Below, in pieces: positions 7,048 through 14,153 of a DNA stretch of 64,000 bases. The notes under the pieces were generated by a model, which had not been told where the DNA came from, did no database searches, and was given only the letters and a program-made list of their open reading frames with translations. A program made the translations under genes and the position numbers. The stretch is from Mobula hypostoma (Eukaryota): contig NC_086097.1 of NCBI RefSeq assembly GCF_963921235.1, forward strand, positions 61,258,001 through 61,322,000. The letters run 5' to 3'. Numbering within the stretch: the first letter of the stretch is position 1; each line of letters opens with the position of its first letter.

Positions 7048-9052
7048 AGCCAGGAGGATGTGGAATCGATATGTGTAGAGCTGCATAACACTAAGGGGCA
7101 GAAACTACTCGTGAGAGTTGTGTACAGGCCACCTAACAGTAGTAGTAATGTTGGGGATGGCATTAATCTGGAAATTAGAAATGCGTGCAATAAAGGAACA
7201 GCAGTTATAATGGGTGACTTCAATCTACATATAGATTGAGTGAACCAAATTGGTAAGGGTGCTGAAGAAGAGGATTTCTTGGAATGTATGCGGGAGAGCT
7301 TTCTGAACCAACATGTCAAAGAACCAACTAGAGAGCAGGCCATTCTAGACTGGGTATTGGGCAATGAGGAAGGGTTAGTTAGCAATCTTGTCGTGCGAGG
7401 CCCCTTGGGTAAGAGTAAGCATAATATGGTGGAATTCTTCATTAAGGTGGAGGGTGATATAGTTAATTCAGTAACAAAGGTTCTGAACTTAAAGAAAGGT
7501 AACTTTGAAGGTATGAGACGTGAATTAGCTAAGATAGACTGGCAAATGACACTTAAAGGGTTGAAGGTGGATATGCAATGGCAAGCACTTAAAGATCGCA
7601 TGGATCAACTGCAAAAATTGTTCATCCCAGTTTGGCAATAGAATAAACTAGGGAAGGTAGTGCACCCATGGCTGACAAGGGAAATTAGGGATAGTATCAA
7701 TTCCAAAGAATAAACATACAAATTAGCCAGAAAAAGTGGCACACCTGAGGACTGGGAGAAATTCAGATTCCAGCAGAGGAGCGCAAAGGGCTTAATTAGG
7801 AAAGGGAAAAAAGATTATGAGAGAAAGCTGGCAGGGAACATAAAAACTGACTGTAAAAGCTTTTATAGATATGTGAAAAGAAAGAGATTGGTTAAGACAA
7901 ATGTAGGCCCTTTACAGTCAGAAACAGATGAATTGATCATGGGGAACAAGGACATGGCAGACCAATTGAATAACTACTTTGGTTCTGTCTTCACTAAGGA
8001 GGACGTAAATAATCTTCCAGAAATAGTAGGGGACCGAGGGTCTAGTGAGATGAAAGAATTGAGGGAAATACATGTTAGTAGGGAAGTGGTGTTAGGTAAA
8101 TTGAAGGGATTAAAGGCAGATAAATCCCCAGGGCCAGATGGTCTGCATCCCAAAGTGCTTAAGGAAGTAACCTAAGAAATAGTGGATGCATTAGTGATAA
8201 TTTTTCAAAACTCTTTAGATTCTGGATTAGTTCCTGAGGATTGGAGGGTGGCTAATGTAACCCCACTTTTTAAAAATGGAGGGAGAGAGAAACCGGGGAA
8301 TTATAGACCAGTAAGCCTGACATCGGTGGTGGGGAAACTGTTGGAGTCAGTTATTAAAGATGTGATAACAGCACATTTGGAAAGCGGTGAAATCATTGGA
8401 CAAAGTCAGCATGGATTTGTGAAAGGAAAATCATGTCTGACGAATCTCATAGAATTTTTTGAGGATGTAACTAGTAGAGTGGATAGGGGAGAACCAGTGG
8501 ATGTGGTATAGTTGGATTTTTAAAAGGCTTTTGACAAGGTCCCACACAGGAGATTAGTGTGCGAACTTAAAGCACACAGTATTGGGGGTATGGTATTGAT
8601 GTGGATAGAGAATTGGTTGGCAGACAGGAAGCAGAGAATGGGAATAAATGGGACCTTTTCAGAATGGCAGACAGTGACTAGTGGGGTACCGCAAGGCTCA
8701 GTGCTGGGACCCCAATTGTTTACAATATATATTAATGACTTAGACGAGGGAATTAAATGCACTATCTCCAAGTTTGCGGATGACACGAAGCTGGGCGGCA
8801 GTGTTAGCTGTGAGGAGGATGCTAAGAGGATGCAGGGTGACTTGGATAGGTTAGGTGAGTGGGCAAATTCATGGCAGATACAATTTAATGTGGATAAATG
8901 TGAGGTTATCCACTTTGGTGGCAAGAACAGGAAAACAGATTATTATCTGAATGGTGGCCGATTAGGAAAAGAGGAGGTGCAACAAGACCTGGGTGTCATT
9001 GTACACCCATCATTGAAAGTGGGCATGCAGGTACAGCAGGCGGTGAAAAAGG

Positions 9053-9282
9053 TGTGGTAAACCATATATATATGTTGTAACTGGGTTAACTGTCTGGACA
9101 TGCCCCTCTGCTGACTGCCCCAGTGGCTCCCCCCACAGGTTCCTGTATAAAGGTGTTTCACCTTGCCCCTCCCCCTCAGTCCAGGGTCAGACACTCACCG
9201 TGGAGGTCGTATTGTACAGCGAATAAAAGCCTTTCAGTATTTTACCAAATCTCAGTCTTTTGGAGTTATTGAAGGTGCTTCA
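9053..9282 (+). repeat. 5' LTR (230 bp)
   Basis: TGTGGT…CTTCA; TATAAA at 9146-9151, Inr-like TCAGT at 9176-9180, AATAAA at 9222-9227. About 12 substitutions and 1 indel versus the 3' LTR by manual alignment. Confidence 0.95.
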
Positions 9283-9284
9283 AC

Positions 9285-9299
9285 TTTATTCGCTGTACA
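9285..9299 (+). promoter_or_regulatory. Self-complementary sequence at the primer-binding-site position
   Basis: TTTATTCGCTGTACA, 2 nt after the LTR, is the exact reverse complement of LTR 9213-9227. No TGG-starting tRNA PBS is present. Confidence 0.8.
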
Positions 9300-9308
9300 T
9301 TTCAAAGC

Positions 9309-12300
9309 ATGGAACAACCATTGAGACCAGACAAATTAGACCTCGATCCGCCAACACCTGAAGCTGGAAACGCTTTTGAACTCTGGCTGGCCTGCTTCAA
9401 AGCGTACCTGGAGGAGATTAAAGCAACCAACCCCATAGCAAAGTGCAGAGTTCTACTCTCCAGGGTCAGTCCACGGGTCTATTCGCTGATCAGAGACCAG
9501 CCGAACTACGATGGCGCAATGAGTGCCCTCAAAGGACAGTACCTGCGGCCGATAAACAGCGTCAATGCTCAGCACCGCTTAGCTACTCGGCAACAATGCC
9601 CCGGGGAATCGAGTGCTGAGTTCGTCCAGGCCCTACGGACACTTGTGCCGGCCTGCAATTGCCAGGAGCTGACCGCGGCGCAACATGCAGAGCTCCTAGT
9701 GAGAGACGCCTTCGTCACGGGGACCAGGTCAGTGTATGTGTGCCAGCGGCTGCTGGAAATAGCCGATCTTACCTTAAGTCTGGCGATCGAGCTGACCAAT
9801 ATGCTGGAGGCCGCTCTGCACAACTCTGAGGCTCTCCAGGCATGCGACCCCCCTCATGGCCTCGTGGGCATCGCAGACCCCGCAACCCGCCGGCGAATCG
9901 ACCTCGGCTGCCGTCAGTCGTGAATCCACGAAGTGCTACTTCTGCGGACTGGAGAAGCACCCCCGGAAACGCAGCCCGGTCCAACAAGCTACCTGCTCCA
10001 GCTGCGGAAAGAAGGGCCACTTCGCCAAGGTCTGTAAGTCCAAACCGCGAGCGGGATCGAGCAGCATCACTTGCAAGACGTGGGGGTCGCCATCTTGCCT
10101 GCCGCTATCTTCCCCGCACGCCGCCACCACGTGCGAGACATGGGGGCGGCCATCTTGGTCGGTGCCACCTCCAACGGCCTGTGACCAACGGGTGCTCACG
10201 GGGCACCCCACCGCGCCGGACCAAGACAGCGACCCAACATTGGCTTCCATGACCCTCGACCAAAGCGCTCCCCACCAGCTCGCAAGGTCAATGATGGACA
10301 TCCTAGTGGAGGGGCGCAGGACAAGCTGCCTGTTTGACACAGGCAGCATGGAGAGTTTTATCCACCCGGCCATGGTGCAGCATTGCGGACTCGTGATATG
10401 GCCTGTAAGTCAGAGGGTCACCATGGCTGTCGCATACAACAGACATCAAGGGGGGTTGTGTAGCGACACTAGTGGTGCAGGGCACAGAATATCGAGACTT
10501 TACGTTACTGGTCTTGCCTCAACTGTGTGCCCCTGTGCAGTTGGGGTTGGGCTTCCAGAGCCACCTGAAAAGCATGACAATGAAGTATGATGGGCCCCTC
10601 CCACCAATTACTGTCGTAAGTCCCCAGTTTTGTAGAGATATGTCACGTACCCCGCTACTGACCACACACACACACCGACCCGCACATCCCACCCAACACC
10701 ATGCCAACTGCCACACTACCAACACCACTTGCGGCCTCTCCACCCTCAGGATCCCTCCCCCACCGCTGTTCGCCAACCTGACCCCCGACTGTAAACCTGT
10801 GGCAACTAAAAGCAGGAGGTACAGCGCGGGGGACAGAGCTTTCATTAAGTCGGAGGTGCAGCGGTTGCTCAGGGAGGGGGTCATTGAGGTAAGCACAAGT
10901 CCTTGGAGGGCGCAGGTGGTGGTTGTTCGGAACGGGGAGAAGAATAGGATGGTCATGGACTATAGCCAGACCATCAATAGGTTCACGCAGCTCGACGCGT
11001 ACCCTCTACCCCGCATCGCGGATATGGTCAATCAGATAGCACAGTACAAGGTGTACTCGACCATAGACCTAAAATCCACTTACCATAAGCTCCCCATCCG
11101 CCGGAAGGACCGCCCTTACACCACCTTCGAGGCGGACGGCAGGCTTTATCAATTCCTGCCCGTCCCCTTCAGTGTTACGAATGGTGTATCTGTCTTCCAG
11201 AGGGCAATGGACCGGATGGTGGACCAATGCCAACTGAAGGCCACATTCCCATATCTGGATAACATCACCATCTGCGGTCACGACCAGCAGGATCACGACA
11301 ACAACCTCCAAAAATTTCTCCAAGCGGCCAAATCTTTCAACCTCACCTACAACAAGGACAAGTGTGTATTTGGGACCACCCGACTTGCTATCCTTGGGTG
11401 TGTCGTGGAGAATGGAGTCATTGGCCCTGACCCAAACCGTATGCGCCCCCTGTTGGAACTCCCTCTTCCCAACACCCTCAGAGCCCTCAAAAGGTGCCTG
11501 GGCTTCTTTTCATATTACGCCCAATAGGTCTCTAACTATGCAGACAAGGCCCACCCCCTGGTCAAGTCCACCACATTTCCCCTCTCTGCCAAGGCTCCCG
11601 CGGCCTTCAGCCGCATAAAAGGGGACATTGCCAAAGCAGCAATGCATGCGGTGGATGAGGCCATTCCCTTCCAAGTAGAGAGTGACGCCTCCGACTTTGA
11701 GCTGGCTGCTACCCTCAACCAGGCGAGAAGACCGGTGGCGTTCTTCTCCCGTACCCTTCAAGGCCCTGAAATTCGGCACTCTGCAGTAAAGAAAAAGGGC
11801 CAGGCCATAGTGGAAGCTATTAGGCACTAGAGGCACTATCTTGCCGGCAAAAGGTTTACCCTGCTAACTGACCAGCGCTCAGTCGCGTTCATGTTTAATA
11901 ACCAACAGCGGAGCAAAATCAAAAATGATAAGATTCTGAGGTGGAGAATCGAACTCTCCACCTTCAACTATGACATCATGTACAGGCCTGGAAAGCTCAA
12001 CGAGCTCTCCGATGCCCTATCCCGGGGAACATGCGCCAGCGCGCAGATTGACCGGCTATACGCCCTACATGTAGACCTTTGCCACCCGGGGGTCACCCGG
12101 CTTTTCCACTTCGTGAAAGCCCGGAACCTGCCTTACTGCCTTGAGGAGATCAGGATGATGACCAGGGACTGCCAAGTCTGCGCAGAGTGCAAACCGCACT
12201 TCTACTGACCCGAAAAGGCACCACTCATCAAGGCCACCCGCCCCTTTGAGTGACTAAGTGTTGAAGTTAAGGGCCCCCTTCCCTCCACCGACCGCAATGT

Positions 12301-13195
12301 GTACTTTCTTAACGTTATCGACGAGTACTCGTGGTTCCCCTTCGCCATCCCCTGCCCCGACACCACTACCACGTCAGTTATAAAAGCCCTGCACAAGCTC
12401 TTCACTCTGTTCCGATACCCATGCTATATCCACAGTGACAGAGGGTCCTCATTTATGAGTGACGAGCTGCGCCAATATCTGCTGGCTAGGGGTATTGCAA
12501 CCAGTAGGACCACGAGCTGTAATCTCCGGGGGAATGGACAGGTAGAGAAGGAAAATGGCACAGTGTGGAAAGCCACACTCTTAGCCCTCAGGTCAAAGGG
12601 ACTGCCGGTCTCCCGCTGGCAGGAGGTCCTTCCCGAGGCACTCCACTCCATCCGCTCCCTGTTATGCACGGCCACCAATGCCACCCCTCATGAGCGGCTC
12701 TTTTCTTTTCCCAGAAAATCGACCACTGGAACCACCCTACCATCTTGGCTGATGTCCCCGGGGCCAGTGCTGCTCCGGAAACATGCGAGGAGCAATAAAT
12801 ACTCCCTGATAGTCGAGAGGGTTCACTTACTTCATGCGAACCCCCAGTATGCCTACGTGGTTTTACCTGATGGGCGGGAGGACACGGTCTCCATCCGTGA
12901 CCTGGCACCCGCAGGGGCACCGGGCCCCTACCCTGAACACTCCGTGGTGACTATTAACCCCATACCCACTGATATATGTACCCACGAGACACTGCACACC
13001 CCAACCCCTACACAGACACCACACGACACTTCCATACCGGGCGCAACGCACACGCACGAGGGATTACCGACGCCTAACGCGCTGACACCTGAAGTCAGGC
13101 CGGAGCCAGCACAACCGCCATCGCCGGTGCAATCACCGCTGGTGCTACGTAGATCACAGCGACGGACTCGACCGCCTGATAGACTTGACCTGTAA
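9309..13195 (+). pseudogene. Gypsy gag-pol polyprotein pseudogene
   Basis: Gag (9309-), zinc knuckle CSSCGKKGHFAKVC, protease LFDTGS, RT (SPWRAQVVVV, YLDN), RNase H ESDASD, and integrase H-x4-H…CQVC, IDEYS, HSDRGSSF, GNGQVEKEN. Frameshifts near 9855 and 10430; stops at 11525, 11828, 12206 and 12251. Confidence 0.93.
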
Positions 13196-13247: not shown

Positions 13248-13264
13248 AAAAAAGGAAGAGCGAA
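13248..13264 (+). promoter_or_regulatory. Polypurine tract
   Basis: AAAAAAGGAAGAGCGAA immediately before the 3' LTR. Confidence 0.85.
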
Positions 13265-13495
13265 TGTGGTAAATCATATATATATGTTGTAACTGGGTTA
13301 CCTGTCTGGACACACCCCTCTGCTGACTGCCCCTGTGGCTCCTCCCACAGAGTCCTGTATAAAGGTGATTTCACCTTGCCCCTCCCCCTCAGTCCGGGGG
13401 CAGACACTCACCGTGGAGGTCGTATTGTACAGCGAATAAAAGCCTTTCAGTATTTTACCAAACCTCAGTCTTTTGGAGCTATTGAAGGTGCTTCA
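13265..13495 (+). repeat. 3' LTR (231 bp)
   Basis: Direct repeat of 9053-9282. Confidence 0.95.
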
Positions 13496-14153
13496 AAAGG
13501 CGAATGGTATGCTGGCATTCATAGCAAGAGGATTCGAGTACAGGAGCACGGAGGTACTACTGCAGTTATACAAGGCCTTGGCGAGACCACACCTGGAGTA
13601 TTGAGAGTAGTTTTGGTCCCCTAATCTGAGGAAAGACATTCGTGCCATAGAGGGAGTACAAAGAAGGATCACCAGATTGATTCCTGGGATGGCAGGATTT
13701 TCATATGATGAAAGACTGGATGAACTGGGCTTGTACTCTTTGGAATTTAGAAGATTAAGGGGGGATCTTATTGAAACATATAAAATTCTAAAGGGATTAG
13801 ACAGGCTAGATGTAGGAAGATTGTTCCCAATGTTGAGGAAGTCCGGAACGAGGGGTCACAGTTTGAGGATAAGGGGGAAGCTTTTTAGGACCGAGATGAG
13901 GAAAAACTTCTTCATACAGAGTGGTGAATCTGTGGAATTCTCTGCCACAGGAAACAGTTGAGGCCAGTTCATCGGCTATATTTAAGAGGGAGTTGGATAT
14001 GGCCCTTGTGGCTAAAGGGATCGGGGGTATGGAGAGAGGGCAGGTACAGGGTTCTGAGTTGAATGATCAGCCATGATCATACTGAATGGGGCTGCAGGCT
14101 CGAAGGGCCGAATGGCCTACTCCTGCACCTATTTTCTATGTTTCTATTTTTCT

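Follow-up and report, generated by a model that had tools for sequence, protein, structure and literature searches.

How does a Ty3/Gypsy element prime its reverse transcription when no tRNA-type primer-binding site (PBS) follows its 5' LTR? The question is raised by a copy in the window, the 64,000-nt stretch of Mobula hypostoma contig NC_086097.1 (positions 61,258,001 to 61,322,000, forward strand) analysed in this work. In the initial annotation, the PBS position of this copy was reported to be a perfect complement of the poly(A)-signal region of its own LTR. Here we examine this complement in the window copy, in the other copies of the host family and in distant relatives.

The window copy and its family in the host genome

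The window copy is a 4.4-kb Gypsy element inserted in a CR1/L2-type LINE. On the forward strand it comprises a 5' LTR of 230 bp (TG...CA, 9053-9282), gag-pol (9309-13195, with zinc knuckles, protease, RT, RNase H and integrase), a polypurine tract (13248-13264) and a 3' LTR (TG...CA, 13265-13495); it is flanked by a 5-bp target-site duplication, AAAGG (9048-9052 and 13496-13500), with LINE-type frames on both sides. The order of the pol domains found with Pfam in the window copy and its relatives (protease-RT-RNase H-integrase) is that of Ty3/Gypsy, and the TG...CA termini, the short target duplication and the polypurine tract characteristic of this group are all present. The copy is dead, its gag-pol being interrupted by frame changes and stops. 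C/A-rich low-complexity spacers lie at 10620-10740 (after the protease) and 12950-13140 (after the integrase core), and make the ray proteins longer than those of the invertebrate relatives. The RT frame of the host LINE (CR1/L2-type, window 7714-9052 and 13496-13960) runs on across the AAAGG duplication.

As the initial annotation indicated, there is no TGG-type PBS behind the LTR, and only 26 nt separate the LTR from the gag ATG at 9309. Positions 9285-9299 are the exact reverse complement of 9213-9227 (15-nt inverted repeat, 100%), and are also 100% complementary to 13426-13440 in the 3' LTR. The 2-nt spacer described for this site holds for the window copy but not as the norm: 71 of the 73 full-length copies carry T at 9284, so that copies of this family normally have a 1-nt spacer, and a duplex of 16 bp between the candidate self-primer segment (9213-9228, repeated at 13426-13441 in the 3' LTR) and the PBS position (9284-9299). 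The window copy, changed at 9284, retains 15 of these 16 pairs. The segment includes the hexamer AATAAA (9222-9227) and an AG conserved throughout the clade (9218-9219). It is indeed identical in both LTRs, whose divergence, given initially as about 5%, was measured as 5.2%; however, at this divergence a stretch of 15 sites has a chance of about 45% of remaining unchanged (0.95^15), and consequently identity of the segment is weak evidence when taken alone.

Searching the host genome at the DNA level yielded 1636 candidates, of which 40 were scored. A total of 78 copies were fetched (38 by protein similarity, 38 from the DNA search and two from a protein search with a distant member, which retrieved the same family again) and, with the window copy included, both LTRs were present in 73 of 79. 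PBS positions 1-15 pair perfectly in 55 of the 73 full copies, a proportion in which the 38 copies from the DNA search favour a conserved PBS, since this was part of the query. Fourteen of the 18 imperfect copies differ at CpG, as predicted by decay after insertion. At position 16 of the PBS, 49 of the 73 copies have A and 22 have G; the G is linked to other diagnostic sites, and the LTR partner shows no inherited change. Either a G-U pair is tolerated at this outermost position, or the position is not part of the primer that is copied. Variants shared by both LTRs fall at 2 of 34 sites in 9213-9246 and at 28 of 159 sites upstream, a difference that does not reveal significant purifying selection on the segment (Fisher p = 0.12). 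The sole shared-LTR change inside the segment, at a CpG site of copy L285, is not mirrored in the PBS of that copy.

Two motif searches aimed at additional families of the host genome produced 163 and 284 matches; none of the 30 loci checked in the first set had a complement of at least 10 nt or a gag match, and one had an integrase-like match. An unrelated AT-rich repeat family with two subtypes also matched the motif search (host loci L228, L229, L237, L242, L245, L247-L250, L252 and L254), with neither a gag match nor a self-complement.

Covariation of the PBS and the LTR segment

Distant relatives were collected from an alignment of 35 full-length elements, which led to 87 loci (79 metagenome loci and 8 MAG loci), 42 of them with the gag start on the contig. 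In 32 of these 42 non-host relatives, 10-19 nt that begin 1 nt after a CA are perfectly complementary to an upstream segment. The ten failing loci are two decayed copies of a positive family, one locus with 46 nt upstream only, three in which the site is present with one mismatch or G-U pair (judged by eye) and four with nothing. The loci were collapsed by eye to 22 families, 23 with the host family; as these are selected, 32/42 is the unbiased figure.

Across the 23 families the complement is 11-18 nt long (mean 14.4). The 11-nt core takes 20 different forms, every one with its match in the LTR of its own family, and columns 4-12 of the duplex show two to four different Watson-Crick pair types each. 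Pairing is found in 295 of 299 cells; when the partners are shuffled, it averages 197 and does not exceed 225. These pairing counts are partly circular at positions 1-10 since the families were chosen for a complement of at least 10 nt. The same correspondence is seen at short distance: L063 and L065/66/67 have near-identical LTRs, with one base swapped in both LTRs and mirrored in the PBS. The duplex always lies 1 nt behind the LTR, the register that a primer needs, and it ends in AAA followed by R (21/23), C (20/23) and C (21/23); the distance from the segment end to the LTR end varies between 23 and 65 nt. As a control, 20 host-genome loci were collected by RNase H profile, and the 12 with a clean junction (Gmr1-like and Mag-like elements) have TGG-type sites and self-complements of at most 9 nt; none of the 30 motif-only loci mentioned above reaches 10 nt. 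Self-complementarity is a real feature of the whole lineage, far from chance, and a chance origin of the complement is very unlikely. The comparison of copies and distant families proposed in the initial annotation thus had a clear outcome: PBS and LTR segment change together. In one relative, L074, the LTR end and the PBS occur twice in tandem upstream of gag (about 138-250), about 56 nt apart.

The PBS might nevertheless bind a host tRNA, a tRNA half or a small RNA, the match to the LTR being a by-product (for instance, if a copy of the primer had been inserted into the LTR). In favour of this, families share the core in part: cross-family pairing averages 4-5 nt, but 14 of 506 pairs reach at least 10 nt and six match at 11/11. 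The tRNA search of the genome gave only tRNA-Lys(TTT) in the 30 matches examined of 60, which is uninformative as a screen. However, the 20 cores each track their own LTR, including the one-base swap within a family, and a tRNA primer cannot explain this covariation. Moreover, there is no TGG, and therefore no CCA end, and the end AAUAAAA is unlike a cut in the anticodon loop, which begins pyrimidine-U. Rfam models run over 9000-9400 matched nothing relevant, with one chance hairpin match. Altogether, we judge a host RNA primer highly improbable. The host genome also contains a dense tandem cluster of tRNA-Lys(TTT) genes (L154-L177), at about 4.02-4.33 Mb of contig C90.

The complement could also be a neutral by-product at the DNA level, generated by snap-back copying at the LTR end and devoid of any priming role. 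Pairing falls off gradually towards its outer end, where inherited mismatches are tolerated (PBS position 16 in the host family; position 14, which differs between L033 and L034/L087), and snap-back copying could account for the outer 3-8 nt. However, it would leave the element without a primer site, and the inner 11 pairs are kept across lineages at only 45-60% protein identity. We give this explanation very little credence.

Primer formation, transcription start and poly(A) signal

In Tf1-type self-priming, a segment at the 5' end of the RNA pairs to the PBS, as described in excerpts of PMC4600332, PMC10085805 and PMC5341516, and the Tf1 cDNA keeps a copy of the PBS made from the primer (excerpt of PMC11042837). 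By analogy, we infer that the present elements work in a similar way. The 5' part of the transcript would fold onto the PBS in vivo (11-19 bp), and the RNase H of the RT would cleave it where the duplex ends on the 3' side, between the A-run at 9228 and the conserved RCC stem (predicted cut 9228|9229). From the freed 3'-OH, minus-strand synthesis would then proceed across the 1-nt spacer, through U5 and the remainder of R, and plus-strand synthesis would copy the primer, rewriting the PBS from the LTR segment; such rewriting would make PBS and segment change together. Judging from the sequence comparisons, cleavage-based self-priming from the 5' R segment, with the element's own RNA as the primer, is probably how these elements start reverse transcription.

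The predicted 5' fold has z-scores of -5.2 to -6.7 against shuffles, and the 5' segment folds on the PBS with a predicted probability of 0.88-1.00 in all 23 families. A predicted stem-loop (9229-9278, in which 9229-9239 pairs with about 9267-9280) stacks on the 3' edge of the duplex. The stem starting at +1 is above the shuffle mean in 18 of the 23 families (individually significant in few) when folded with 6 nt behind the PBS only, and is not above it in L111, the host-family representative. Compared to the three-duplex 'pretzel' fold of the Tf1-type primer (excerpt of PMC10085805), the central duplex is present in 23/23 families, accompanied by one weak adjacent stem, and no second flanking duplex appears in the folds.

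The initial annotation also considered a primer derived from the 3' R copy of the segment. Such a primer would explain pairing upstream of the conserved AG with no upstream start (decay at -12 to -17), and the segment is largely unpaired in the predicted 3' LTR fold. However, it would use up the 3' R, which is the acceptor for the first strand transfer in the established scheme of LTR replication, and the 5' copy is at hand within 23-65 nt of the PBS, with the high predicted pairing given above. No precedent was found in the literature searched and the analysis yielded no positive evidence for this origin, which we consider quite unlikely.

Where the primer begins depends on the transcription start. 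In the host family, the predicted promoter TATAAA (9146-9151) lies 67 nt before the segment and 32 nt before the A of the initiator-like TCAGTC (9176-9181), a canonical distance; both motifs were correctly annotated. The predicted start, A9178, is 35 nt upstream of the segment; a primer beginning there would be about 50 nt long and have an unpaired 5' tail. No inherited variant of TATAAA was found among the 73 copies, although the motif is too short for significance, and no other family among the 23 has a TATA in this geometry (two other matches, one of them outside the LTR). Throughout the clade, an initiator-like A (17/23) and G (20/23) precede the duplex end by 11 and 10 nt, embedded in a full YYAGYY in six families; in the window copy this is the AG at 9218-9219, 11 nt before the 3' end of the segment. 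This AG, or a point just before it, is the likely start of the primer in most families, 11 nt from the cut, in a Tf1-like geometry. A strict 11-nt primer does not account for the complement past the AG, where pairing is seen for 34 of the 44 non-T letters from -12 to -16 (16/18 at -12/-13 and 18/26 at -14 to -16, with background from -20). These non-T pairs beyond the A are real, indicating that bases further upstream are sometimes part of the partner; such pairs could arise through variable starts, longer primers or copying at the DNA level.

On the distinct mode of self-priming suggested in the initial annotation, the evidence points both ways. In its favour, the TATA box of the host family is at -67, compared to a TATA-like box at -30/-31 from the first base of the site in 7 of 10 sushi-type elements of the same genome, which have the geometry of Tf1; on the other side, the clade-wide AG near the duplex end and the restriction of this TATA geometry to the host family point to ordinary 5'-terminal priming. 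We place self-priming with a 5'-terminal primer, as in Tf1, a little short of an even chance, and self-priming with an upstream start, at least in the host family, is possible but rather doubtful. The choice of start site in Tf2 controls whether the self-primer is present, according to an excerpt of PMC5341516, and two starts are thus conceivable in the host family. Four contig sets from putative RNA runs cover the whole LTR; their loose ends at 9053 and 9282, the LTR borders, derive from the flanks, and they carry no signal of a start, an end or a poly(A) site, since contigs cannot place ends. None of the RNA runs listed contained more than a small share of the query.

A hexamer (AATAAA or ATTAAA) falls inside the duplex in 15 of the 23 families. 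In the window copy, the predicted poly(A) site is near 9247, upstream of a U-rich stretch. The predicted 5' fold has the hexamer paired (z = -5.7), and the 3' LTR fold, where no PBS follows, leaves it largely open (z = -0.2). The duplex might consequently serve mainly to hide the poly(A) signal of the 5' LTR, an idea already raised in the initial annotation, with priming left to an unknown host RNA or to another element-derived RNA. However, eight of the 23 families keep the duplex without a hexamer in it (three of these have one further downstream), which weakens masking as the main role. A mask requires neither a fixed 1-nt spacer at the PBS nor perfect pairing, and the 26 nt between LTR and ATG leave no room for another primer site. 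We regard this explanation as unlikely: poly(A) masking can only be secondary, and hiding of the 5' AAUAAA is plausible, from the folding models, as a side benefit of a self-priming duplex where this includes the hexamer.

Phylogenetic placement and comparison with known systems

The closest named proteins are from rays and sharks (77-94% identity), followed by those of cnidarians, a damselfly and a whipworm (58-63%). The reported absence of a chromodomain was corroborated: the window copy has no match, and neither a Chromo nor an SH3_Tf2-1 domain was detected in any of the 35 relatives. In quick maximum-likelihood trees of the RT-RNase H region (49 rows, four short rows being skipped, and 20 rows), with host-genome elements as references rather than named reference elements, the lineage forms its own clade (SH-aLRT 100) on a long branch, apart from the sushi-type, Gmr1-like and Mag-like elements of the host, to which it is roughly 25-33% identical. 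The labels Gmr1-like and Mag-like are provisional and follow domain order and PBS type (PBS type in the case of the Mag-like L212-L214). In a library clustered at 50%, single-domain matches drop from more than 40% identity to multi-domain matches of about 30%, which fits a bounded clade. By these comparisons the lineage is a separate, deep, non-chromovirus Gypsy clade and not a member of the Tf1/sushi group, in agreement with the contrast to typical sushi chromoviruses drawn in the initial annotation. A sister relation to the SH3_Tf2-1-bearing sushi-type elements was not rejected, at a borderline value (AU p = 0.0504); an independent origin of self-priming is therefore favoured rather than shown.

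No relatives were found among viral contigs or phages, and the protein-cluster atlas returned generic Gag clusters only. Eight contigs in bacterial MAGs (L218-L225) carry this animal Gypsy lineage; these loci, together with two bacterial-named protein records, are most likely host DNA contaminating the bins.

To our knowledge, Tf1-type chromoviruses are the only elements in which self-priming has been demonstrated; for a plant copia lineage it has been predicted. The Tf1/sushi elements, including Tf1 and Tf2 of Schizosaccharomyces pombe and Tj1 of S. japonicus, likewise have a non-tRNA PBS behind the 5' LTR complementary to an LTR segment, the Ty3/Gypsy domain order and a stem beside the duplex edge. 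The sushi-type elements of the host are built on this principle too: their site is 11 nt long and the spacer 1 nt. Unlike them, the present lineage has no chromodomain or Tf2-type SH3 domain, belongs to a separate clade (about 25-33% RT-RH identity to the sushi-type copies) and forms duplexes of 11-19 bp, which end 23-65 nt from the LTR end and often overlap the poly(A) hexamer, whereas in the sushi-type controls this distance is 167-227 nt and there is no overlap.

Excerpts of PMC6317226 report self-priming in the Tf1/sushi, Tcn1 and copia TAR (Houba/Osr-1) lineages, the TAR copia and plant Tcn1 chromoviruses being predicted by the same criterion as used here (complement of at least 10 nt, 0-5 nt behind the LTR). 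Those elements are copia or chromoviruses of plant hosts, whereas the present lineage is a non-chromovirus Gypsy of animals; the predictions indicate that self-priming can arise more than once.

The Mag (A/B/C clades) and Cigr-1 elements resemble the present lineage in their short LTRs, single compact ORF, 5-bp duplication and two Gag zinc knuckles, the last being a Mag trait. Cigr-1, which the present lineage may resemble in size and single ORF, is a candidate clade name. It is placed under Mag in the excerpted supplement of PMC6238403, and mosquito Mag elements use tRNA-Leu/Ser/Arg sites (excerpt of PMC3286476). In contrast, the present lineage has no TGG PBS, while the Mag-like elements L212 and L213 of the host have TGG sites, are about 28% identical and are separated by a long branch. 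Among the open-literature matches listed, a scope that takes in neither subscription journals nor Repbase Reports, no paper describes an animal Gypsy clade that primes itself and is not a chromovirus. Repbase is said to use the clade name 'Smaug' for self-primed Gypsy elements, and an earlier description may exist there; no paper on a 'Smaug' clade was found in the literature searched.

The boldest reading, to which we give less than an even chance, is a second and independent origin of self-priming in Gypsy elements, animal-wide and with the primer cut from the poly(A)-signal region of R; the start 35 nt upstream would make the primer internal in the host family, and a single hairpin would both produce the primer and switch off the 5' poly(A) signal. 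If self-priming is true, a lineage of sharks and rays, cnidarians, insects and nematodes would have dropped the tRNA, tRNA independence would have been reached repeatedly or be old, and these elements would be beyond the reach of tRNA-fragment silencing. Self-priming would also explain that PBS-based annotation finds no primer site in them. The 20 covarying cores, the fixed spacer and the conserved edge motif constitute a comparative set for primer making by RNase H from an RNA duplex.

The sushi-type chromoviruses of the host are an abundant set (L180-L197; 5456 SH3_Tf2-1 candidates) with a self-complementary 11-nt PBS, and two unrelated Gypsy lineages that would prime themselves thus coexist in this genome. 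The Gmr1-like elements of the host (L203-L211, L216-L217) are young, with the integrase before the RT, tRNA-type TGG sites and LTRs of 850-890 bp that are up to 99.7% identical; one of them, L205, is a tandem pair with a common LTR.
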